This document shows, piece after piece, positions 4,268 to 27,315 of a stretch of 64,000 nt of DNA. How positions within the stretch are numbered: the first letter of the stretch is position 1; every line of letters begins with the position of its first letter. The notes beneath the pieces are model-generated. The model worked only from the letters and a program-made list of their open reading frames with translations. It made no database searches and had not been told where the DNA came from. The stretch is from contig CAWEDJ010000071.1 in the NCBI GenBank assembly GCA_963807635.1, forward strand, positions 32,001 to 96,000. Direction: 5' to 3'. The DNA comes from an uncultured cyanobacterium (GTDB lineage Bacteria; Cyanobacteriota; Cyanobacteriia; Cyanobacteriales; Microcystaceae). The translations under genes and the position numbers were made by a program.

Positions 4268-5383
4268 TTATCTAATTACCTCATATAAAGCCAGAGAAAC
4301 TTGTTGAATTTGCTCATCAGTTAAAGCCATTCCACTCGGAATATAAAAACCTCGACGAGCATTTTTTTCCGCAATAGGATAAGATTCTCCTAAAAATAAT
4401 CCCATTTTTTGAAAAACAGGTTGTTCGTGCATTCCCCAGAAAAAAGGACGAGTCCCAATTTTCAATTCTCCTAAACGACGCATGGCTTCTTTGGCATCAA
4501 AATTTACCTCATCTTTAAGGACAATTCCATAAACCCAATAAATATTATTAGCATAATCAGTTTTAGCTAAGGGTAATTGCAAACAAGATAAATCAGAAAG
4601 CAACTCCGTATATTGTTTACCTATATTTCGTTTCCGAACAACAAATTCATCCAGACGCTCTAATTGGGCAATCCCTAAAGCCGCTTGTAAATTAGTCATA
4701 CGGAAGTTCCAACCCAACTCATAATGGACAAAACGTTGCTGGGGTTGAAAACATAAATTGCGGAGAGATAAGCACCGCTCTGCTAACAGTTGATTATCTG
4801 TAACAATCATGCCACCTTCACCCGTTGTAATGTGTTTATTGGGGTAAAAACTAAAGGTGCTAATCGTGCCAAAACTACCACAGGGTTTATCGCAATAGGT
4901 TTGACCGTGCATTTCGGCGGCATCTTCAATAATCTGTAAACCATATTTTTCTGCTAAAGCCAAAATAGGGTTTATATCCACTGGTAAACCGTAAATATGC
5001 ACCACCATAATGGCTTTAGTACGAGGCGTTATTCTGTCCTCAATTTGGTTTATGTCCATATTCCAGGTCAGGCGATCGCAGTCCACCAGAACAGGAGTCG
5101 CCCCTGCCCGAACAACTGCCGTCGCACAGGAGATAATGGTGAAGGTAGGCATAATCACTTCATCTCCCTTGCCAATATCCAAAGCGGCAACAGCAACATC
5201 TAGGGCAACAGAGCCATTACAGACCGCAATGCCGTATTTACGACCAACACGAGCCGCCATTTGCTCTTCAAACTGTTTAACAAATGGCCCTTCCGAAGAA
5301 ATCCAACCCGTATCAATACACTGATTCAGATATTTCTTTTCGTTACCATTAAGCAACGGTTCATTAACAGGAATAGGTTTCAT
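4268..5383 (-). CDS. DegT/DnrJ/EryC1/StrS PLP aminotransferase, perosamine-synthase-like
   Basis: GWISSEG, IIEDAAE, SFYPNKHITTGEGG (PLP lysine), NFRMTNLQAA. Confidence 0.9.
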   Translation of the reverse strand: MKPIPVNEPLLNGNEKKYLNQCIDTGWISSEGPFVKQFEEQMAARVGRKYGIAVCNGSVALDVAVAALDIGKGDEVIMPTFTIISCATAVVRAGATPVLVDCDRLTWNMDINQIEDRITPRTKAIMVVHIYGLPVDINPILALAEKYGLQIIEDAAEMHGQTYCDKPCGSFGTISTFSFYPNKHITTGEGGMIVTDNQLLAERCLSLRNLCFQPQQRFVHYELGWNFRMTNLQAALGIAQLERLDEFVVRKRNIGKQYTELLSDLSCLQLPLAKTDYANNIYWVYGIVLKDEVNFDAKEAMRRLGELKIGTRPFFWGMHEQPVFQKMGLFLGESYPIAEKNARRGFYIPSGMALTDEQIQQVSLALYEVIR

Positions 5384-5386
5384 AAA

Positions 5387-5827
5387 TTAAGGATTTAAAG
5401 TCAAAATTTGAGCTTGTTTATCAGTAATACCTTGAAAACGAGTTTTGTCCTTTTCTCCGACATAGGGGCCCTGTTTAACTTCGATCATTTCGATCTCTTC
5501 AACGACTTCAAAACCGTGACCCCCAGTGACCAATAAAATGACATCTCCTGCTTCTAACAAACGACTTTCTAAATATTCTTGATGATTGTTGTAAAAATCG
5601 ACTCGTAATCGACCCTTTTTAATAAAAAGAACTTCCTGGGTATATTCAACTTCACGAGGTACGGGATTATGAACATGGGGCTGAATAATTTTTCCCGTAG
5701 GATGACGCATATAAGCTAATTGTTGGGAAAGATCATCGGGTGAAAAGAAATGAATTCCTGGTTTATTAAATTGATGGGAAACAATCAAAGCTAATAATTG
5801 ATGGTGATAAGTAATTTTTTCAATCAT
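5387..5827 (-). CDS. Cupin-fold protein of sugar-nucleotide clusters
   Basis: HVH...QE...GGHGF...EVKQGPY cupin-like metal motif; lies 3 bp upstream of the aminotransferase. Confidence 0.65.
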   Translation of the reverse strand: MIEKITYHHQLLALIVSHQFNKPGIHFFSPDDLSQQLAYMRHPTGKIIQPHVHNPVPREVEYTQEVLFIKKGRLRVDFYNNHQEYLESRLLEAGDVILLVTGGHGFEVVEEIEMIEVKQGPYVGEKDKTRFQGITDKQAQILTLNP

Positions 5828-8251: not shown

Positions 8252-9472
8252 TTATTTTGCCCAATCCATCGGCTCAATTGGCTCAAATGTTGTTGTTAAA
8301 TGAACAGTTGATCCTATATGAAATGCTTGATGAATGGCAATAACTAATTCATTATTATGTAATGCAAAATCAGCAGATAAACGATTAGGCCGTTGTTCAG
8401 TGATAGACGCTGCCATTTCTGCTACACCTCGACTTAAGTCCATCTGCATACCGCTATCTTCGTACCATTTTGATTTTGGAGGTTTTCGTACTAACGGATA
8501 AATCATCTTGGTTTGTTGTTTCATTAAAATTTTAGTCTGAATACGCTTCGCATAACTAAAGAATTTTTCTGCAAGAACAATGCTTTTTTTAAAAATATTA
8601 AATTCTGTTGAGTTAGTTAATGAAGATTTCTCTCTATATTCAACATATATAGGAGCATCATAAAACCAGCACTCTTCAGTTTCTAAAATGCCATGATCAC
8701 CAATAATTTTCAGCGAATGATTATGGGGGGCAACAATACTACAAGTAAGTCTTGCTACGACTCCAGACTTGAATTTGATACACGCTACTGAGAAATCGGG
8801 AGTATCAGGTGGTTCTAGTAACTCATCGCTAACTTTATTAGGAATTAAACAAGAAGCAAAGGCCGTAACTGATTCTGCTGGGCCAAAAAATGCAGTTAAC
8901 CAAGTAACGTAATAACCTGCATGTTCAAGGGTACAACCTATTTCAAATTCATCTTGATACGGCCAAGGAATACCCGATACGCTTAACCAGGTTTTATAAG
9001 AAGATTTATGTATCATTCCGTCGTCTATTTCAGCATAGACTAAACGCACTTTACCAACGGCATTTTCACGAACAGCTTTCCAGAGAGTCTGTGCTGTTTC
9101 ACCGAGAAGACTACAGGGAGCCGAAGTAATCTGTAAGCCTTGTTGATTGGCTAAGGCAACCAGATTTTTGCTCTCTGAAATCGTCATGGCTATTGGCTTT
9201 TCAGAATAAACGTGCTTACCTGCCTCTAAGCAAGCCTTAGAAACTTCATAATGGCTTCGAGGATTGGTTAGGTTTAAAACAATATCAACGTTACTATCCG
9301 TGAGTAGTTCATCCAGTGTTTCATAAAAAGGAATTGAGTGATATTGGGAAAATTTAACAGCGCGATCGCGAATTGTGTCCATCACTCCTACCAATTCCAA
9401 CTCAGGATGTTCAGGTAGTGTCTGAACATAGTAATCAGCAATATGACCACATCCAACAATAGCAATTTTCAT
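8252..9472 (-). CDS. Gfo/Idh/MocA family oxidoreductase
   Basis: IAIVGCGHIA and AGKHVYSEKP motifs. Confidence 0.9.
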   Translation of the reverse strand: MKIAIVGCGHIADYYVQTLPEHPELELVGVMDTIRDRAVKFSQYHSIPFYETLDELLTDSNVDIVLNLTNPRSHYEVSKACLEAGKHVYSEKPIAMTISESKNLVALANQQGLQITSAPCSLLGETAQTLWKAVRENAVGKVRLVYAEIDDGMIHKSSYKTWLSVSGIPWPYQDEFEIGCTLEHAGYYVTWLTAFFGPAESVTAFASCLIPNKVSDELLEPPDTPDFSVACIKFKSGVVARLTCSIVAPHNHSLKIIGDHGILETEECWFYDAPIYVEYREKSSLTNSTEFNIFKKSIVLAEKFFSYAKRIQTKILMKQQTKMIYPLVRKPPKSKWYEDSGMQMDLSRGVAEMAASITEQRPNRLSADFALHNNELVIAIHQAFHIGSTVHLTTTFEPIEPMDWAK

Positions 9473-9610
9473 TAATGTTATCCTTTTTATCTGAAGATTT
9501 ATGCGAAGATTTTCAGGGTTGAAAAATTGTAGATTGCTCTCAAAACGATAGATTTATTAATTACTGCCTGAATACTTACTTTTTTGAAATAAAAATTATT
9601 GATTTTTTTG

Positions 9611-12327
9611 CTAGGTTTTAGACAAAATTTTATCTATTTCAGTCTTGATTTTTTCAGCTAACACTTGAATATTAGGAGTTTCTAACATGGTATAGTGATC
9701 ACCAGGCACTTGATGAATATCCAAATCCATATCTCTTAAATTTAGCCACGCCCTCTCAGGTGCTTCATAGGTATAGTATATATTAGGGACTTTATCAATT
9801 TCTAACTCTCCATTTTTGAATTTTACCCATCTCTCATCAGATGGATTAAGGATCAATGACGAAGAAAATTCTATAAAAGAGTTAGCCTTATAAAAAGTTA
9901 CCTTGCCTGGGTAAGATTTAGGAGTATAATACTCCAATATATGTGTACCGTAGCCATTATCAATATGTGCAAAATAGCCATCAGAAAAGGAAAAGTGATT
10001 AGAAGAATGTAATTTTGTTGATACTTGAGACTTGATTTTTTTCAAAATTTTAGTAGGTCTCAATTTTGAAGTTTTATAGAGTCTTTTAATTATTGACTTG
10101 TTCTTTACCCAAATATCAAGAAGTAAAAAATTCAATATGTTATAGACTCTTTGATGGATGGGAAACGCTATTTTGTTTTTTTCTAGATACGTATCACTTA
10201 AAGCGAGTAAGCCTACCTGTTGACCTTGCTCAGTTAGTTGTTGAGCTATCTCATAGGCAATCACACCACCAAAAGAATGACCGACTAAAAAGTAAGGCCC
10301 CTCTGGCTGAAGCGATCGCATTTCCTCAATATAGTGAGTAGCCAAATTCTCCAGCTTAGGTAAAGATAATTCAGTATCTACAGGGCCTCCTATCCCATAA
10401 CGTAATCCATAAAAAGGTTGCTCTAGTCCTAGACAATTGGACAATTCTTTATAGACAAGAAAATGTATTCCAAATAAAGGAGGACGAGAACCCTGGGGTT
10501 GAATCGGAACCAGGGAATACCAGGAAGGTAACTCCACCTGAGAGGATACAACTTTAGCCAACTTCTTGATAGTGGGGGCTAAAAAGATAGTTGAGAGGGG
10601 AAAACTTTTATTAAAAGCTTTTTCCATTTGAGACAAAACCTGAGTGGCTAAAAGCGAATAGCCTCCTAATGCAAAAAAATTATCATCAATGCCAATTGGT
10701 TCGACCTGCAAGACTTCAGACCAGATTTTAACCAATTTTTCTTCTAAAGGTGTTACTGGCTCTTTGTACTCAGATTTTGCTTCCGTTGCAGGATCGATAG
10801 GAGTTAATCCTAATTTTTCAGCTAATCCTATACGTTGCAACTTTCCCGTTGGGCCTGTCGGTATTTTGTCAAGAAATAAAACAACACGGGGTACTTTAAA
10901 ATCAGCGAGTCGTTTTGTCGCAAACTCCTTAATTTCTTGTTCTGTTGTAGATGCTCCTTCCTTAAGAATCACCGCAACAGCCACATCTTCGCCTAACAGA
11001 GTGTGGGAGGCGGCAAACGTAACAACCTGTTTAATGGCGGGATGATCTAGTAATACTTCATCCACTTCACGGGGAGAAATTTTTTCACCACCACGATTAA
11101 TAATTTCCTTAATACGCCCTTTGAGAAAGAGATAATTGTCCCCATCTAAATAACCCAGATCACCCGTTCTAAACCAACCGTTAGTAAAAGCCGTTTGATT
11201 CGCTAGAGGATTATTTTCATAGCCTTGGGTAACATTCGCTCCTTGAATCGCGACTTCACCCACTTCACCCGAAGGAAGTATATTCCCAACGTCATCCAGA
11301 ATAGTGACTTTTGGGCCAGCCGCTAGTCCGACCGAACCAGGTTTGCGTTGTCCTGGGGGTAAAGGATTGCTGGCCATTTGGTGAGCCGCTTCAGTCATTC
11401 CATAGGCTTCAATAACAGGAGCATTAAAAACCTGTTCTAGTTCATCCATAACTTGGGGAGGCAAGGAGGCAGAAGAAGAACGGATAAACCGTAGTGACTG
11501 AATGTTAGACATTTTAGCGGGATTCGTTTTAGCCTTTTCCAAAATCATCTGGTGCATGGTCGGAACGGCACTGTACCAGGTCGGTTGAAATTCTTCTAAA
11601 TAATCTAAGAATTTAGGCGCATCAAAACCTGCGGTACAGACAACACTAGCACTAACATTTAAGGATGATAAAAGAACTGCCACTAATCCATGTATATGGA
11701 ATAATGGCATCACATTCAAACAGCGATCGCTTTGACTTAAAGCTAAAGTCTGACTAATTGTTTGGGCGGAGGTCAACAAATTTGTGTGGGTTAGAGGCAC
11801 TATTTTGGGACGCGAAGTTGTTCCTGAAGTATGCAGAACGAGAGCAACATCATCAGTCTGAGCAAAGCCTTTATTCGCTGTGTACTGAGGTTCACCTCCA
11901 GTCAGCGCAAATATTCCTGCTTCGGCGGTTAAAACAGGCGTGAGTTCGATGATGGAATATTTCGTTCTTTAGCAATCGTTCTAGCGGCCTCAGCAAAATC
12001 TTTTTGTACGATTAACGCTTTTGCATTTAGATCCGATAGATAAAAATCAAATTCCCCAGCGAGGTAAGCAGGATTCAGAGGCGCACAGGTAGCACAAGAT
12101 GCGACGGCTAAAAAGGCGACTGCTGTTTCTGGCCCATTGGGTAAAACAAGAGCAACTCTGTCTGTTCGACCGATGCCGATCGCATTCAGTTTGGCTACCA
12201 CTTGCTCAACCTGTGACAACAAGCTTTTATAGGTCAAGGGTTGACGACCAGGAGCATGGATGGCGATCGCATCAGGAATATTCTTAGTTTGAATAGATAG
12301 CCAATGATAGATATCAAAATTACTCAT
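9611..12327 (-). CDS. Stand-alone adenylation-PCP-thioesterase (A-T-TE) protein with an oxalate-CoA-ligase-like A domain; one frameshift near 11955
   Basis: Adding one base at ATTCC|ATC joins the two ORFs (~905 aa). A domain: LHTSGTTSRPK, PLFHIHGL, FIRSSSASL, EAYGMTEAAHQM, FRTGDLG, TGKLQR. PCP: DNFFALGGYSLLA. TE: GHSFGG...PGDH. Confidence 0.85.
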
Positions 12328-12381
12328 TTTACTGATTGCTTAAAATTGCTTAGATGCTAGTTTTTGGCTCAAAGTTATCGC

Positions 12382-13236
12382 TTATTTGGAGTGAACATAG
12401 GAAGCGTCATAGCGACTGGCCAAATTCATAATGAGATGCTCATTACATTCTGCTAGTCCTACTTGTTTCTTCTCTAGCCAGCCATCATTGTCTTTTAAAA
12501 AGGCGATTTCCTGTTCAATGGCCGCCTGAGCCGCAAACAAACAAGGAGTACTGTAATTGACCAGTCGCACTCCTGCTTCTTGTAATTGTTGGAGATTACA
12601 AGCAGGAGATTTCCCCCCTGCAATTTGATTAAATACTAGTGGGATGTGTATTTCTTCTTTAAGAACCCTGATCGTTTCCAGATCCTTAATTCCATCTGCC
12701 AAAATAGCATCAGCTCCTGCATTCACAAATGCTTTTGCTCTTCTGACAACTTCTTCAAGTTCCCCCGCATCTGTACGGGCAACAACAAATATATCTTTGC
12801 GAGTTGCTAATACTTTCTCTAGTTTCCTTAAATAATCATCCAAGTCCAAGAGTTGTTTCCCATCAAGATGGCCACATCGTCTGGGACGTTTTTGATCTTC
12901 CATAATCACACCCGCTACTCCCATTGTTTCTAATAAAGTCACAACATGGGATGCCACTTCTATATCGACATATCCATCATCGATATCAACTAATAGATAA
13001 TGATTGGGTAATATCGTTCTGACTCGGTGGACAAAACCTAGTATATCTGACCAACTGATAAAGCCAATATCTGGTAAACCATAATGACTAGCGGCAAAAC
13101 CAAATCCACTGATAAAAATTCCCTCGAAATACTTAGCCGCTATAGAGGCTGAAAAGACATCATATACACCGATAAAAGGAAATATATCGTCCTGTTTGAT
13201 TTTTTCACGAAAGAGGTTTGTTAAATTTTCTGACAT
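12382..13236 (-). CDS. Isocitrate lyase/PEP mutase superfamily C-C lyase, probable oxaloacetate acetylhydrolase
   Basis: ISGFG, GLPDIG, DIDDGY, EDQKRPRRCGH (lyase-branch loop), VARTDA, and LVNYSTP with Ser at the OAH marker position. Confidence 0.7.
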   Translation of the reverse strand: MSENLTNLFREKIKQDDIFPFIGVYDVFSASIAAKYFEGIFISGFGFAASHYGLPDIGFISWSDILGFVHRVRTILPNHYLLVDIDDGYVDIEVASHVVTLLETMGVAGVIMEDQKRPRRCGHLDGKQLLDLDDYLRKLEKVLATRKDIFVVARTDAGELEEVVRRAKAFVNAGADAILADGIKDLETIRVLKEEIHIPLVFNQIAGGKSPACNLQQLQEAGVRLVNYSTPCLFAAQAAIEQEIAFLKDNDGWLEKKQVGLAECNEHLIMNLASRYDASYVHSK

Positions 13237-13320: not shown

Positions 13321-13579
13321 ACCTTCTGTCTAATGAAAATTACTAATAGATTTTTCTCTAGACAATTTTTTTAGACTTAACCTTTGCAATGTAAAATTAA
13401 GTCTATGGGTTGTATATTGAAATTTTTACCAGCGAAAAACAAAAAATTGTGATGTTCGTAATGTTTGTTTTGTAATTGAATTTACCTTTTTCTGGGTCAT
13501 ATAAAAATCAATAATTCGTATTTAGATAACATTAATTATCGATTAGTATTTTTTTCTGAATCTAGGCTTTAGAGGAAAT

Positions 13580-14842
13580 TTACGTTGGTGTTTTCCATCG
13601 ATGTGGTATAAAAACACTACCAAATGAATCTAATACAGGACGATTTCGTATTTGTTTTCCTTCAACCTGAAAGGATGCCGCGTACTCCACATAATCAACG
13701 ACTTTTCCTTCTTCACTACTCCAAAGTCCCGCATTAATCCTATAACGACCAGGTAGAAGTAACAGTTCGTCAATTTCACAAATAAACTTGCTTTCCTTTG
13801 TTGAAATGATCATATCTTCTCGACTATATGCAGAAGAATCAAATAGAGTAACTGGCTGACTATGTTGATTATAGATTGAAAAAAAGCAGACTAATCCTGG
13901 ATATATCTTGGTAGCATAAAAAACGAAAATAGCAGAAGAACCTACTATTAATGTATCAGATAAATCACTTTCCGCACCATTGAATTTCATGTCAATGAGT
14001 CGTGATTCACCACTCCCATTACGATCTGCTCGTTCTGAAAGATTTTGAGATGATGCTTTTTCTAAACTTCTAATGTAACTTTCTACTACTTTATTAGCCG
14101 TGTCATTAGCTAAAATAGTTCCTTTTCCAAGGAGAATACCATGAGTGCAAAGTGATTGTAATATTCCCAAGTTATGACTAACAAATAATATTGTTCTTCC
14201 CTCTTTACCAACCTCTTCCATTTTTCCTAAGCACTTCTTCTGAAACTGAGCATCTCCAACGGCTAAAACTTCATCCACAATCAAAATTTCAGGTTCCAAA
14301 TGGACTGCCACAGCAAATGCCAACCGCACATACATACCCGAAGAATAATGCTTCACTGGTGTATCTAAAAATTTCTCTACCTCAGCAAAATCGACAATTT
14401 CATCAAATTTTCTCGTTATTTCTGCTTTGCTCATTCCTAAAATTGCACCGTTAAGATAGGTATTTTCTCTTCCTGTCAACTCAGGATGAAAACCCGTACC
14501 TACTTCTAATAAACTAGCGACTCTTCCCTTAATTGAGATTCGGCCAGATGTTGGCTCAGTAATTCGACTTAAAATTTTCAATAGTGTTGATTTACCTGCA
14601 CCATTACGTCCGATAATACCAACGCGATCGCCTTGTTTGATTTCAAAAGAGATATCTTTCAACGCCCAGAAATCTTCTTTTTGTGAGTTTTGTACCTTGA
14701 ATTTTTGATTGTGTATATTTTTTAAGAAAGATATGCTTTTATTCGTTATAACATCTCTTAAAGCAGTATATCTTTCTTGCTTTTGATGTTTAATAATATA
14801 CCTTTTACTTAAATTTTCAACTTGAATAATGGTATCAGACAT
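13580..14842 (-). CDS. wzt: Polysaccharide ABC exporter ATP-binding subunit with C-terminal Wzt_C carbohydrate-binding domain
   Basis: GRNGAGKST, YSSGMYVRLAF, ILIVDEVLAVGD, plus a ~150-aa C-terminal extension (LLPGRYRI). Confidence 0.92.
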   Translation of the reverse strand: MSDTIIQVENLSKRYIIKHQKQERYTALRDVITNKSISFLKNIHNQKFKVQNSQKEDFWALKDISFEIKQGDRVGIIGRNGAGKSTLLKILSRITEPTSGRISIKGRVASLLEVGTGFHPELTGRENTYLNGAILGMSKAEITRKFDEIVDFAEVEKFLDTPVKHYSSGMYVRLAFAVAVHLEPEILIVDEVLAVGDAQFQKKCLGKMEEVGKEGRTILFVSHNLGILQSLCTHGILLGKGTILANDTANKVVESYIRSLEKASSQNLSERADRNGSGESRLIDMKFNGAESDLSDTLIVGSSAIFVFYATKIYPGLVCFFSIYNQHSQPVTLFDSSAYSREDMIISTKESKFICEIDELLLLPGRYRINAGLWSSEEGKVVDYVEYAASFQVEGKQIRNRPVLDSFGSVFIPHRWKTPT

Positions 14843-18894: not shown

Positions 18895-19723
18895 CTAAAT
18901 CACATCTGCAAAGGTTCGTTCGGTTTTACGGAAATACCAAATTCCCGTAATCATAAAAAAGGCAACTATAAATAAAGATAAAAGAAAGCCAGGTAAATAG
19001 ATATTATATTGTGTTCCTAAAATTGCCCATCGAAACCCATCGATTACCCCAACCATCGGATTTAAGGAGTACAGCAAACGCCACTTTTGAGGAACGATAT
19101 TACTACTGAAACCGACGGGAGAAATATAGAGTCCAAACTGAACAATAAAGGGAACAATATAACGAAAATCACGATATTTTACATTCAGTGAAGCCAACCA
19201 TAAACCTGCTCCCATTGAAGCGGCAAAGGCGAATCGCGATAAAAAAGGGTAAAGTCAGAATACGCCAACTGGGAACAAAGTTGTACCAAGCCATTAAGCC
19301 CAATAAAATCATGCCTGAGACGAGAAAATCTACGAAACTCACGACGACGGCACTGGTGGGAATAATTAATCGAGGAAAATAAATTTTAGAAATCAGGTTG
19401 GAATTGGTAATTAAACTATTACTACATTCAGTCAATGAATTAGAAAAAAATTGCCAAGGTAACATGGCTGAAAATACCAAAATGGGGTAGGGAACGCCCT
19501 GGGAAGGTAGTTTGGCGATACTTCCAAACACCACAGTAAAAACAATCATTGTCAGAAGAGGACGAATTAATGCCCAAGCAATGCCAATGAAGGTTTGTTT
19601 ATAACGGACTAAAATATCACGCCAAGCGAGAAAATAGAAAAGCTCTCGATATTTCCAAATATCTTGCCAATACTGTTTTTCAGTTCGTTCAGCTTCGATA
19701 ATAATAGTCGATTTAGCAGTCAT
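18895..19723 (-). CDS. wzm: Polysaccharide ABC exporter permease; frameshift near 19232
   Basis: LAWRDILVRYKQT, KIYFPR, NVKYRDF, LNPM; an extra base inside a HIP1 site (GCGAATCGC at 19229-19237). Confidence 0.9.
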
Positions 19724-19782: not shown

Positions 19783-22021
19783 TTAATCTACATTGTTGAC
19801 AATAATTCCTGCTATTTGGCTTTGATTTGTTCTCAGGTTTTCTAGGGTATCCAGGATGATCGCCCGCTCGGCACGTTTTAAATCAACAACAAATGCGACT
19901 TCATCCACTTTGGGAATAATGCTTTGGGCATCGGCTAATTCGGAAATTGCGGAAGTATCTATCAAAATATAATCATACACTTGTCGCCATTGTTCTAGCA
20001 TGAGATTCATTTTGGGAGAAACTAACCACAAAAAGGAGCTAGTGATTTCGGGGCCTGCCGTCAGGACATCGGGATAACCTTGATGAACGGGGGGAGTTTC
20101 TGCCATTGTGAGAACCGAAGCCTTGGTTAAAACCGAACCCGATAGAGCATTGGAGTTAGGTCTTGCACCATTAGTCGAATTTTCCGGAGAAAAATCGAAA
20201 TTATCCCCAGTATAGAGAGATTCCTCTCTTTCTTGGGGGGCCGTTGATTGAACTAAGCTTTGCCAAGTTAAATCGGTCGCGATCGCGGTGCTGAGACCTT
20301 GGGAGTTGGGCAGGGAAAAAACTTGATGAATTTTAGGATCTGCAAGATTAGCATCCACAATCAAGACTCGTTTTCCTAGTTCAGCTAATACCCGTCCCAA
20401 GTTACAAGTCATGGTTGTTGTGCCTTCTCCCGTTGTGGCCGCCTGCAATCGCGATAGCCTGACCAATCCGATGAGAAGTTTGCAGAGAGAGAGAGAGAGC
20501 TAAAGAACGAATCGCCTCAGTAAAAGCATTAGATTTATTTACTAGACCTGACTGGGAATTTTTGAAAACAGAAACCTGCCCTTGGGCTTTAGGAATTAAT
20601 CCCAAGATAGGCAAAGGAATCATTTGTTTGAGTTCCTGAAGATTTCTAAAACGTTGCTCAATTTTGTCTAGCCAAACAGCCATCGCTGCACCAGAGATAA
20701 TCCCCGCCAACAAAGCCAATATTAGGCCGCGATTGCGATTTTTATCCACAGGCATAGAAGATAACATCGGTGGTTCAATTACCTTCCAAGATGACGTTTC
20801 CTGAGCTTCCATGATGCGGAGTTCCTGGAGTTTTTTCTTAAAGGCATCAACAGTTTGCATATTGTCGGCTTCACGACGCTGGAGAGTTTTATAGGTCTGT
20901 TGTAATTTAAGTAGGCGATCAAGGTCTAAATTAGCCAATTTTTCCTGCTGACGCAGTTGGGGTAACTGTTTTTCCTGAGTTGACAAGCTAATCTGAAGTT
21001 GAGATAATTGACTTCCTAATGCTTGTAAAATTTCTCCATTTTCAATGTTTTTGGAGGCTATGAGAGAATTCTGTGTCCCAATCACCTGCTGACTAGACTT
21101 GCTTAATAACTGATTGAGTTCATCAATTTGTTCTTTCAATAACTTCAAGCGGGGATGGTCGGGCGTATAAAGAGCCTTTTCCGATTGGTATTGAATATTT
21201 AGAATTTGTAATTGCTTGACAATAGACTGATAGGTACTATCTTGGCTTAAAACAGCATCAGCCAATAGGGTTTTAGCATTTTGTTGGAGAGACCTGATTT
21301 GACTTTGTAAAGCTTGGTATTGTTGTTGGGTTTGATAAAGAGTTAATTCAGCCTCTGCAATCTTGACTCGAAGATTTTCTTTTTGAGAATAGGCTAAATT
21401 GATTCCCGCTTCCCCGTCGCCCAGATTGTTACGAATCCGAAAATTAGTCAATTCACGGGACGATTTTTCTAACTCCGCTTGGGCTTGGGGTAATTTTTTC
21501 TCAATAAACCGAACCGCATTGGTAACTGGCGATCGCTGGGTATCCCGTCCATACTCCAAATAGGTAGCGACTAAGGCATCTAAAACAGCCTTCGCTTGGA
21601 GAGGATTCTCATCTTCATAGGAGATAGAAAGAACCGTCGTATCTTCGGGTTGGATCAGCCGTAAATTTTTAGCCAGTAATTCCAAAGAAATTCTTCGATA
21701 GCGAGCATCCAATTTGTTGATCGCCTTACTGAGTAGAGATTGACTTCTGAGGACTTCAATCTCCGTAGGCAAATTAGCCACTTTATCCTTAGAGGAAGTC
21801 GAACCCGATTCTTCCGATTGAACAACTGGCACTGAGACCTTATTCCCCACTAAAATCAAGGATTGGGTTTGGTATAACGGTTTACGGAGAACGAGATATC
21901 CTACTCCCCCCAGAACCACTAGGGCGGTAATACTTGCAGGTAGCCAATGTCGCCTAACCGCAGTCCACCAACTAGTATTAGAGGAGGCGAAATCCGAAAC
22001 CATCATCTTCATATTTTCCAT
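19783..22021 (-). CDS. wzc: Polysaccharide co-polymerase (Wzc/GumC) with a degenerate BY-kinase domain; frameshift near 20445
   Basis: N-terminal TM, EIEVLRS, coiled coil, YTPDHP, second TM, LGLIP, FTEAIRSL, then a kinase-like domain GEGTTT...LIVDAN...ILIDT. Confidence 0.85.
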
Positions 22022-24875: not shown

Positions 24876-25591
24876 TTATTTGGCTTTGATTGCTCTCCAA
24901 ATATAAAAAAGCAACACGGCGGAAAGAAGAGACCCTAGATTCCACTTGACGGATTTTTTGAGTAACTCTAATCGAACATCCCGAAGAGACTGAGCTTGCT
25001 CCTTAAGCTTGACTTCTCCATCGGTCATCACAGTGGTTAGTCGATTTTTGAGGGTTTTGACCTGTTCGGGGTTCTCTAGCTTAGGGATGGGACCGTTATT
25101 GCCGAGGTCACGGGAGAGAATTTGTTGTAGTTCAGATTGGGTCTTGGTCGTTTTTAAGTTAGTCTGGGCTTTTTTGACCTGGGCGATTTGGATATCTAGC
25201 TGGAGGAGTTGTTGATGATTGAGGGTGAGTAATCGGTTGGTATTGATGATGCCAATGGGGATCATCAGTAGATAGATCAGTCCGAGGATAAGGGCTAACC
25301 AAGTAATCAGAGATAATAAAAATTGTTCTAAACGTTTGCGTCCAAAATTTGGCCCAGGTAAATCATGGCATAGGCTAAAAATAGAACAGGAACTTTTTCG
25401 ACTAAGGCTCCAAAAGTCTGAAATTCCCAATTGGGATTGGTCAAGCGGAGTGGGATCAGGGTATCGATAAAATCAAAGAGGAAAAAGGCGAGAAAAACGT
25501 AACCAATGACTCGTATAAGAGCTAAAGTCCATAGAGTAGAGGTATTGGTCATAATAGGGTGGTTATGAACGTTACTTTCGTGAAAATTCAT
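24876..25591 (-). CDS. HpsJ-like membrane protein (cyanoexosortase A-associated); frameshift near 25350
   Basis: LIPLRLTNPNWEFQTFGALVEKVPV...LLKKSVKWNLGSLLS; several TM segments. Confidence 0.75.
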
Positions 25592-25764
25592 TGTTTTGTT
25601 GGTTTAAATTAAGGTAAGTTATTGCGATATTAAAAACAGTCATTGAGCTGATCGCTGACATGATGAATGACTCCATAATAATAAGGAGTAGGGTGAAAGG
25701 AAAAGATTTCTAAAAGGCGATCGCTAAGAAGTAAATGAGGACAATAGGAACACAATATGTCGGT

Positions 25765-26427
25765 TTAATCGGAGGACGGATAATGGGAAACCCACCACTT
25801 AAACCAAGATTGCCCCGCGTTTTGGAGTATTTTTTGAGAGTTGTGATTTTCTGACGGTGTGGATAGGGTTAAATGCGACCAGAGACAGCGTTGATCCAGT
25901 AGATTGGATTTTCCCCAGAGCCACCCCAAGAAACCGTTTAAAGTTTTTCCTGTAACTAATTTCGTCCGTAGGAATTGATCCGCCGTCACCGTACTCGACC
26001 CCTGGGGATTGATGCAGGCACTCAAATAGGAACGATTCTGATGATTTCCTAAGGCGATCGCGCCCATCCCCTCTTGATGAGTTATCTGAGAAATAGAAGT
26101 ATCTCCAATATATTTACGCAAGAGATTAGGAATGTCCGCTTCTGCCGTATTCAAATAACGCATTTGAATATTTAGCGTCAAACCATCGGGCGAGAGGTAT
26201 TGATAGGAGCGGCTGGCAATAGGGGTTAACTCATTGGAGCTAGGGAACTCTAAGGTATGACTCCTAACTTGTTTCCAGCCTGATAGAGGAACTTTTTCAG
26301 GAAAAGAAAAAGGCGCGACGGTCGGACGGGAAAGTAAGGGAGTTTTGATGCCCCAAAGAGAGCTGACTATTGTTCCACCCAGGGCGATCGCTAAAACAGA
26401 GGGACGATAGAAATTCCAATGTTTCAT
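25765..26427 (-). CDS. Cyanoexosortase A system-associated protein
   Basis: N-terminal TM, FPEKVPLSGW, YLSACINPQGSSTVT, DQRCLW; overlaps the exosortase gene. Confidence 0.8.
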   Translation of the reverse strand: MKHWNFYRPSVLAIALGGTIVSSLWGIKTPLLSRPTVAPFSFPEKVPLSGWKQVRSHTLEFPSSNELTPIASRSYQYLSPDGLTLNIQMRYLNTAEADIPNLLRKYIGDTSISQITHQEGMGAIALGNHQNRSYLSACINPQGSSTVTADQFLRTKLVTGKTLNGFLGWLWGKSNLLDQRCLWSHLTLSTPSENHNSQKILQNAGQSWFKWWVSHYPSSD

Positions 26428-27315
26428 TCTGTTTCCTCTTGCTCAGATCCTAAAGGATTAGGTGACTGGATGAGAAAATAAATCACAGTACAAAGGAGAG
26501 ACATAGACATCATTGAAAACAAAAGAGAGCCTTCTCCAGAGTGCCAATACTCAAAACCAACTCGATTATGGTAGGCAACAATTACCGCTAAAAGTGCGAC
26601 TCGGATACTATTCATGATAAAACCGATCAAAATTGCCGTAACGGGTAAAATGAACTTGGTTTTCCAATTACTCGGAAACATGAGAAAAAATAATAGGCTT
26701 AAACTCAACAAATCGAGCATAGAAGCTAGTCCTGAACATCCAGGATAAACCTCAACTCCATTAGAAGAACCTGCAAAATAGAGATTAACGCCCTCTCGAA
26801 CGGTTTCAAAACCCGAATACCAAAGCAAATAGCCCGCCAATTTAGCCGTTAGAGGGGAGGGATCGAGGTTGCCTAACAAGGACGTTAGAGGAGTAACTGC
26901 GCATAAAAATAAATAAAATCAAAAATTCGCGTTTGTATTGCCCTAAACCCTGAAACCCAGAAGCCAAAAGGGTCAAGGAAAAAAAAGCTATCAGGGGAAA
27001 GAGATATAAACTAGAGCTACTCTGGGTAATTAAAAAAACACTTTTGATTAATAACGGGAGCAAAAGTGCGATCGCAAAGCAACTAGAAAAGATGCTACTC
27101 TTCAGTTGCAAGGTCTCTCGTTTATCCCAAATCAAAGCGGCGACCGCCGACCAAAAGACCACACTAAGCCCAAAAAAACTTAAAGCCCCTACTCGCCAAA
27201 TCATACTGAGATGAACCAAGCAAAGGCTAATTCCCAAGGAAGCCAACAACATTTTTGTTGTATCGACAAGTCGAGGCCTATTTGCCCATTTTTTGAAAAA
27301 TTGGTCAATATCCAT
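26424..27315 (-). CDS. crtA: Cyanoexosortase A; frameshift near 26890
   Basis: Multi-TM protein with the exosortase triad: Cys (VYPGCSGL), Arg (NSIRV), His (YWHSGEG). Confidence 0.85.

Follow-up and report, generated by a model that had tools for sequence, protein, structure and literature searches.

We analysed a 64,000-nucleotide stretch of DNA from an uncultured cyanobacterium of the Microcystaceae (assembly GCA_963807635.1, contig CAWEDJ010000071.1, positions 32,001 to 96,000), hereafter the window, and in it two adjacent minus-strand genes that lie inside a polysaccharide cluster. The first gene encodes a lyase of the isocitrate lyase/phosphoenolpyruvate mutase (ICL/PEPM) superfamily and the second a protein with an adenylation (A) domain, a carrier (T) domain and a thioesterase (TE) domain, here called A-T-TE. 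A reading made from the letters alone (the sequence-only reading) had proposed that this pair generates oxalate, adenylates it, holds it on the carrier and passes it through the TE to a surface glycan. The positions and strand that it gave for both genes and the 54-bp spacing between them were confirmed, as were all sequence motifs quoted for the A-T-TE protein. This protein has about 905 aa and no condensation domain; Pfam returned AMP-binding, AMP-binding_C, PP-binding and Thioesterase, and no Condensation. The features of the pair are as follows.

12382..13236, minus strand: lyase gene, ICL/PEPM superfamily, predicted oxaloacetate hydrolase
11953..12327, minus strand: N-terminal part of the A domain, 125 residues, upstream of the frame change (domain search and homologue alignment)
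11950..11960, minus strand: one change of frame compared with intact homologues, probably an indel error of the assembly (homologue alignment)
10796..11952, minus strand: remainder of the A domain, of oxalate-CoA-ligase type (PDB search and pocket alignment)
10550..10741, minus strand: carrier (PCP/T) domain, Ser of GGYSLL at 10655-10657
9611..10516, minus strand: type I TE domain, with Ser of GHSFG (10274-10276), Asp of LSDT and His of PGDH

The lyase is 284 aa long and was assigned by Pfam to PEP_mutase. As claimed, it has a lyase-type loop, EDQKRPRRCGH (RRCGH at 12868-12882), and lacks the EDK-x5-NS motif of phosphoenolpyruvate (PEP) mutase. Its scores were below the NCBIfam cut-offs for PrpB (170 vs. 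354 bits), carboxyphosphoenolpyruvate (CPEP) mutase (125 vs. 420) and PEP mutase (81 vs. 320), and these three identities were ruled out by motifs and cut-offs together. Alignment with characterised members placed Ser229 of VNYSTP (codon 12550-12552) opposite the Ser of oxaloacetate acetylhydrolase (OAH; 3LYE, IFSF) and of the petal death protein (AHSL), as the sequence-only reading had expected; the same column holds Pro in dimethylmalate lyase (DMML, IFPF) and in the 4IQD enzyme (IYPV). We take this column to be the published OAH marker position 281. One position is always Ser in OAH and is used as a marker, according to the passages on it in PMC8537180 and PMC3256194. Of 82 rows at ≥50% identity, 81 have the marker Ser (own copy counted, and one row stopping short of the column), and none of six cyanobacterial homologues at greater distance has it. 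The lyase is not an orthologue of fungal OAH, 3LYE ranking ninth behind 4IQD, the petal death protein, DMML and methylisocitrate lyases. Its place is in a bacterial clade of its own, which has a YSTPC motif and at least 524 members and is rare in cyanobacteria. From the marker residue, we predict that it is an oxaloacetate hydrolase making oxalate and acetate.

Some lyase loci elsewhere have other surroundings. Actinobacterial members of the clade (L016-L080) lack this ligase, and a transporter is their commonest real neighbour; an SBF-like transporter gene occurs in 27 of 80 lyase loci, possibly forming a pair for oxalate production and export. In a Verrucomicrobiae metagenome-assembled genome (MAG; L010:6801-10855) a lyase of the same clade comes after an MBOAT-like gene, an AMP ligase of another kind and a carrier, an arrangement that is tightly coupled and Dlt-like, the Atlas score behind it counting as weak evidence.

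The A domain was compared with the oxalate-CoA ligases AAE3 and Pcs60 by pairwise alignments to PDB entries. Four oxalate-CoA ligase sequences came first in the ranking (E = 6.5e-110 to 3e-79) and the next match had E = 2.4e-63; full-length oxalate-CoA ligase chains led by more than 40 orders of magnitude. S289, H319 and K500 are direct oxalate contacts (PMC8905533), and all three were kept in the window protein. Opposite V215-H216, C288-S289, A313-M314, H319 and K500 of AtAAE3 this protein has I-H, S-S, G-M, H and K, and the resulting pocket code, IHSSGMHK, was the commonest among 171 aligned sequences. The closeness to AAE3/Pcs60 noticed earlier is thus borne out by the best PDB matches and by the contact residues.

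Related ligases show how variable this family is. Free oxalate-CoA-ligase-like genes were seen in cyanobacteria and one other genome (L150, L151, L154, L156, L158, L199) with PanE/ApbA reductases adjoining. Five of the cyanobacterial ones adjoin reductases of this family as in the oxalate assimilation pair, and oxalate assimilation is their likely role; their pocket reads IHSSSMHK (VHSSSMHK in L150), with S in place of G at the Ala313 position. One genome carries two A-T-TE paralogues (L144:8876-11533 and L145:7949-10594) with altered pockets in which His319 is replaced; diversification of the family thus goes beyond oxalate. At four loci oxalate-type A(-T) genes adjoin thiamine pyrophosphate (TPP) enzymes (L006, L102, L196, L200), L200 having a TPP-thioesterase fusion.

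The carrier Ser and the Ser and His of the TE are intact, as had been noted, and the Asp of the triad is kept as well; the triad positions were at least 90% conserved across 47 aligned sequences. By its Ser-Asp-His triad and its alpha/beta hydrolase fold the TE is a type I thioesterase. The model used was confident (mean pLDDT 83), and a single-sequence fold with pLDDT 40 was set aside. Foldseek matched the TE to type I TEs, with Pks13 on top by a small margin at 19% identity, a result that is not diagnostic. The N-terminal loop is short, as is typical of the TE subfamily, and the Gly-rich loop of many TEs is absent. We dropped this absence as a sign of a dead TE because all of the subfamily has the short loop, terminal TEs of non-ribosomal peptide synthetases (NRPSs) included; a basic lid was likewise dropped as a sign of a membrane-bound acceptor (subfamily median +7 vs. 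+10 here). The segment before the His strand has 43 residues vs. a median of 14 and a maximum of 23 in 46 relatives. The insertion of about 29 residues (residues 212-254, window ~9750-9880) resembles an internal duplication, since diverged, of the stretch preceding the catalytic His.

A domains of this clade were present in 8 of the 9 closest cyanobacterial lyase loci, the ninth of which lies at a contig start, in 1 of 6 other MAG loci, and in none of 65 actinobacterial loci. Together with the marker residues, this recurrent lyase/A-carrier coupling in cyanobacteria gives good support to the proposal that oxalate is made, adenylated and held on a carrier. We consider it probable that oxalate is formed from oxaloacetate and that oxalyl-carrier is made.

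The scheme that we propose has three steps. Judging from the marker Ser, the lyase would split oxaloacetate to oxalate and acetate. The A domain would then form oxalyl-AMP and load the phosphopantetheine of its own carrier, as its pocket and architecture suggest, the carrier being primed in trans by a phosphopantetheinyl transferase (PPTase) of the genome. The earlier remark that the window has no PPTase gene held for the window open reading frames (ORFs) scanned up to 41349, and the genome has one on contig C64. Finally, as the context suggests, the TE would take oxalyl on its Ser and hand it to a cytoplasmic sugar acceptor, which may be a nucleotide sugar or a lipid-linked chain ahead of Wzm/Wzt export; amines for oxalylation could come from the products of the DegT and deacetylase genes. 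Hydrolysis by the TE alone would be an ATP-burning loop, and an acceptor other than water is therefore expected. No export features were seen in the A-T-TE protein, and ABC-dependent polysaccharide chains are completed in the cytoplasm, so that a nucleotide sugar or a nascent chain would be within reach. The TE of Pks13 releases its product on polyols, preferably trehalose, according to the part of PMC9210659 that deals with it, a precedent for a type I TE able to acylate a sugar. Transacylation by the TE onto a glycan is plausible; the full scheme including this transfer is possible, and we put it forward tentatively.

The location in a Wzm/Wzt cluster was upheld, and the cluster has Wzc-like and cyanoexosortase A genes in addition. 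It forms a co-oriented run of about 37 kb that extends past the left end of the window and holds Wzc-like and Wzm/Wzt genes and many genes for glycosyltransferases, epimerases, methyltransferases, DegT proteins and polysaccharide deacetylases. The run lies behind cyanoexosortase A genes, and at the cluster head (24876-27315) there are HpsJ-like, cyanoexosortase A-associated and crtA genes. The pair itself sits, in the same orientation as the run, between wzt and a Gfo/Idh/MocA gene. The neighbours that matter here are listed below.

13580..14842, minus strand: Wzt ABC ATPase with a Wzt_C domain, the gene directly upstream of the pair
18895..19723, minus strand: Wzm permease, split in the assembly (cluster context)
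19783..22021, minus strand: Wzc-like chain-length protein/tyrosine kinase, split in the assembly (cluster context)
8252..9472, minus strand: Gfo/Idh/MocA oxidoreductase, the gene directly downstream of the pair
4268..5827, minus strand: cupin together with a DegT-family sugar aminotransferase, which might supply an amino-sugar acceptor (cluster context)

Among the cluster ORFs scanned there was no recognisable acyltransferase, apart from one weak GDSL match (E = 0.005), and no MBOAT match; a 429-aa ORF and a few small ORFs were without family. Neither intergenic region flanking the pair had a terminator-like site, and the promoter scan was at chance level (12 observed vs. 12.0). HIP1 sites were found at 10312, 11723 (previously given as 11724) and 12263. 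The long residence in cyanobacteria that had been read from them is a weak inference: three sites amount to 0.83/kb over the module vs. 1.18/kb genome-wide, and HIP1-based dating was dropped as three sites are too few. In the genome, which is 93.7% complete, no further A, carrier or TE sequence matched closely, the two A-domain matches elsewhere both being weak; the gene itself has no condensation domain, and no partner NRPS was found for it.

The sequence-only reading had suggested that co-occurrence with glycan clusters be checked in other genomes, and this check showed glycan genes to be enriched beside oxalate A-carrier genes. A glycosyltransferase or DegT gene lay within two ORFs in 14 of 60 oxalate A-carrier loci and in 6 of 14 A-T-TE rows. 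The background was 159 of 2881 genes of the own genome (~5.5%) and 8 of 142 genes in 16 random windows; the comparison sets gave 0 of 18 rows for free ligases and 1 of 10 for other NRPS loci. Several arrangements contribute to these counts. The A-T-TE gene is divergent from a GT2 gene (L081, L177, L178), or is followed by a sulfotransferase and a DegT gene (L148). After an oxalyl-NRPS comes a GT4-like gene and then, on contigs long enough, DegT (L002/L190, L003, L182, L191). A GT25/GT10/GT2 fusion, an oxalate A-T, a C-A-T-TE (C, condensation), a DUF6270/sulfotransferase and a GT2 form one operon (L183, L188). A lyase and an A-T-C-A-T precede four GT4 genes (L192), and single glycosyltransferase neighbours were found at L099 and L101. 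At L096, which is outside the 14 of 60, wzt directly precedes a cut-off oxalate A domain. In this sample the enrichment is genuine and of moderate size, and it is silent on what the TE acylates.

Two details of these loci are worth recording. The GT4-like genes that directly follow oxalyl-primed NRPSs (L003:18868-20825, L182:14382-16676, L191:4861-7110, L190:1-883) have no Pfam match and are followed by DegT, which suggests glycosylated oxalyl-peptides. Upstream of the operon in L183 and L188 there is a second A-T-TE gene together with an ACBP-carrier protein.

A number of results weigh against a dedicated glycan-oxalylating system. No glycosyltransferase or DegT gene lay within two ORFs in 46 of the 60 A-carrier loci, many of which end at a contig edge. 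The glycan-positive loci boil down to some seven arrangements, found in related organisms, and kinship thus inflates the enrichment; L002 and L190 are one record, and four of the A-T-TE rows are near-identical. The glycan profiles were partly built from the same flanking genes, most being confirmed by Pfam and the remaining family grouping with GT4-like proteins in the Atlas. The 60 loci held no second locus with lyase and A-T-TE and none with the pair inside a Wzm/Wzt cluster, so this half of the expected co-occurrence was not replicated; the lyase itself occurred in 17 of the 60 A-carrier loci and in 0 of the 14 A-T-TE rows. Orthologues of the downstream Gfo gene were found in 16 of 400 genomes, and the module in 0 of those 16 loci, on which count a conserved link between module and Gfo was dropped. 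The lyase was not found in any of five same-genus genomes, nor in 400 sampled genomes of the phylum at E ≤ 1e-50, and it is only about 30% like any characterised member. The pocket is identical to that of AtAAE3 at five of eight positions, with V215I, C288S and A313G differing. A nearby TylM1-like methyltransferase could claim the DegT amine.

Ancestry weighs in the same direction. Seven of the nine closest lyase loci run on into NRPS condensation modules, and the window A domain nests among almost exclusively A-T starters in a clade of 30 with support 0.86 (FastTree, 171 A domains). The TE falls in a generic terminal-TE subfamily of cyanobacterial NRPSs and polyketide synthases (PKSs), with up to 72% identity in the N-terminal half, and a glycosyltransferase was near 1 of 5 loci seen for this subfamily. 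A glycan-specific TE family was sought and not found, the relatives terminating NRPS/PKS lines. The carrier scored a median of 78 bits vs. TE-preceding carriers and 70 bits vs. starter carriers. Since the A domain nests with starters while TE and carrier resemble a terminal T-TE, the A-T-TE protein is evidently a shuffle of a starter A domain with a terminal T-TE and not a member of a glycan-specialised family, and the pair, by all appearances, goes back to a starter cassette for oxalate by which NRPSs are primed in other cyanobacteria. In the origin that we envisage, such a cassette (lyase and A-T) would have acquired a terminal TE and then joined the polysaccharide operon. Stand-alone oxalate-type A-T-TE proteins are common, making up most of the top 120 matches and 109 rows in the A-domain tree. 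Outside cyanobacteria the search gave 5 of 251 genomes in one phylum and 0 of 201 in another, and a plasmid search gave four records, of which the one inspected had no glycan context. In oxalate-starter NRPSs the first elongation module frequently carries an internal formyltransferase domain, placed between its C and A domains (L001, L002, L003, L004, L008, L009, L082, L084, L179, L182, L186, L204).

This ancestry favours a reading in which the TE releases oxalyl onto a non-glycan nucleophile (an amine, amino acid or polyol) to give a secreted oxalamide or ester, the cassette being a passenger in a variable polysaccharide locus. The closest relatives prime NRPSs, the TE is of a generic release type, and 8 of the 14 A-T-TE rows have no glycan neighbour. 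In addition, an imperfect inverted repeat of 21 bp (19/21 matching; arms at 9587..9607 and 13503..13523) brackets exactly the two genes. Its score was matched in 1 of 2000 shuffles and in 5 of 2000 real intergenic pairs, and each arm is single-copy in the genome at ≤1 mismatch. The repeat was, however, spotted post hoc and no target-site duplication is evident beside it; it hints that the pair perhaps came in as one unit, which is compatible with a glycan and a small-molecule product alike. The cassette also lacks a tailoring or exporter gene for a small molecule, and the glycan-neighbour enrichment extends across several independent arrangements. We therefore regard a small-molecule product as unlikely, while keeping it as the leading alternative to glycan oxalylation.

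A second alternative is that the A-T-TE gene is a dead or dying remnant of a collapsed NRPS and its frameshift genuine. The gene's first 125 aa lie in one frame and the other 780 in a second, with the switch at ~11953, the point where the alignments of five intact homologues pass from one frame to the other. The frame change that had been placed near 11955 is thus present; as a sign of a dead gene it is doubtful. Frame switches were found in 14 of 67 conserved genes of the assembly, this gene included (tblastn, over 78 kb), and they affect housekeeping genes; the window has split copies of gap, murC, wzm, wzc and crtA. With an assembly so rich in breaks, a 2.7-kb gene has, by our own arithmetic, about a 40% chance of a spurious one, and the frameshift is very probably an assembly artefact. 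More generally, the assembly-wide indel error rate is high, and split genes in this genome are not to be read as pseudogenes without reads. Among the public contigs listed (four runs, covering pieces of both genes) no piece bridges 11953, and no RNA run was listed as carrying the locus among public runs; the frameshift remains a point against the proposed scheme. A chimeric origin, the unusual TE insertion and the patchy distribution would fit decay as well. Against it, the gene has no stop codon and no lost catalytic residue apart from ~11953, and related populations carry pieces ~97-99% alike to both genes. Eight of the 12 best-supported differences listed for the A-T-TE gene are synonymous, a weak sign of purifying selection. 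A relic is accordingly an improbable account of the gene.

The module might instead work with glyoxylate, pyruvate or a 2-oxo acid from an alkylmalate, for a glycan or a small molecule. The petal death protein, an enzyme of broad specificity, has the marker Ser too, and this also counts against a strict oxaloacetate assignment; that protein splits alpha-keto as well as alpha-hydroxy acids, as reported at second hand in PMC7609661. A313 is Gly in the carrier-fused clade, and LsOCS is slightly active on glyoxylate (PMC8905533). S289 and H319, however, are described as conserved only among oxalyl-CoA synthetases (PMC8905533), and two independent enzymes of the pair converge on one metabolite, which leaves another acid only a small chance. 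Least probable of all is a lyase that supplies free oxalate for chelation or secretion beside an A-T-TE protein that merely buffers or hydrolyses without transfer: the absence of the A clade from the actinobacterial lyase loci, the SBF-like transporter genes and the missing Gly-rich loop common in TEs would suit it, but its cycle would waste ATP, the short loop is subfamily-wide, and the transporter gene is absent from the cassette.

Returning to glycan oxalylation, a wider reading is that cyanobacteria took the oxalyl-carrier starter module into glycan chemistry several times. Here an A-T-TE would oxalylate a Wzm/Wzt-exported glycan in the cytoplasm, the oxalyl group possibly forming a chain cap that Wzt_C reads, and at other loci short oxalyl-primed NRPSs would be tied to glycosyltransferases and DegT. 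Taken as a whole, this reading leans towards the unlikely. If the glycan step is true, it would be a new acyl decoration of cyanobacterial exopolysaccharide or lipopolysaccharide bearing directly on calcium and metal binding: bacterial surface glycans would gain oxalate as an anionic substituent of a new kind, able to bind calcium and metals and put on by a thioesterase, and the pair a compact two-protein tool for oxalyl transfer. Even without the glycan step, a testable function is offered for an unannotated bacterial lyase clade (at least 524 relatives) and for a large oxalate-type A-T(-TE) family. In the open-access literature we found no description of oxalate on a carrier protein in bacteria, nor of oxalyl groups on a bacterial polysaccharide.

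The module consists of known catalytic parts in an arrangement of which we found no description. The lyase shares the ICL/PEPM fold family, the CGH loop and the marker Ser with fungal OAH (3LYE) and the carnation petal death protein (1ZLP), and differs from them in its ~30% identity, its separate YSTPC clade and its coupling to a ligase-carrier. The A domain has its best PDB matches and the kept S289, H319 and K500 in common with AtAAE3 (5IE0-5IE3), LsOCS (6QJZ) and yeast 8AFF, which we take to be Pcs60. Unlike these ligases it is fused to a carrier and a TE, and its thiol would be its own phosphopantetheine and not CoA; the ligases are detoxifying, whereas the module would be anabolic.

For the pathway as a whole, the route to beta-ODAP (dencichine) offers the same order of oxaloacetate, oxalate, activated oxalyl and acceptor. 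It consists of OAH, an oxalyl-CoA synthetase and a BAHD transferase, the OAH-coupled version having been engineered in E. coli, according to the relevant sections of PMC9485241, and it differs in using CoA, a BAHD transferase and an amino-acid acceptor. The mycobacterial Pks13 TE resembles the window TE as a type I TE releasing onto a sugar, by the account in part of PMC9210659, and differs in its very long acyl chain and PKS context. In Vibrio cholerae O1 the tetronate genes wbeK-O, which lie in the O-antigen cluster, serve to N-acylate an amino sugar ahead of ABC export, as the section on them in PMC3441752 has it. The likeness lies in acyl-group genes inside an ABC-type O-antigen cluster, and the difference in separate proteins, a different acid and no TE. 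Ligase and carrier roles are presumably among those of the wbeK-O proteins.

Stand-alone A-T-TE enzymes of the TdiA/AtrA type also have no C domain, and their TEs dimerise aryl-pyruvates. The window protein shares with them the A-T-TE order, the missing C domain and a substrate like a 2-oxo acid, and differs in that its A domain is of the CoA-ligase clade. In the Dlt system a small acid, D-alanine, is adenylated and loaded on a carrier for a surface polymer, teichoic acid. The analogy with Dlt drawn by the sequence-only reading is a loose one: the adenylation and carrier logic is alike, but no DltB-type MBOAT or DltD was found among the cluster ORFs scanned, the enzyme is cytoplasmic, and the module would add negative, not positive, charge to its polymer.

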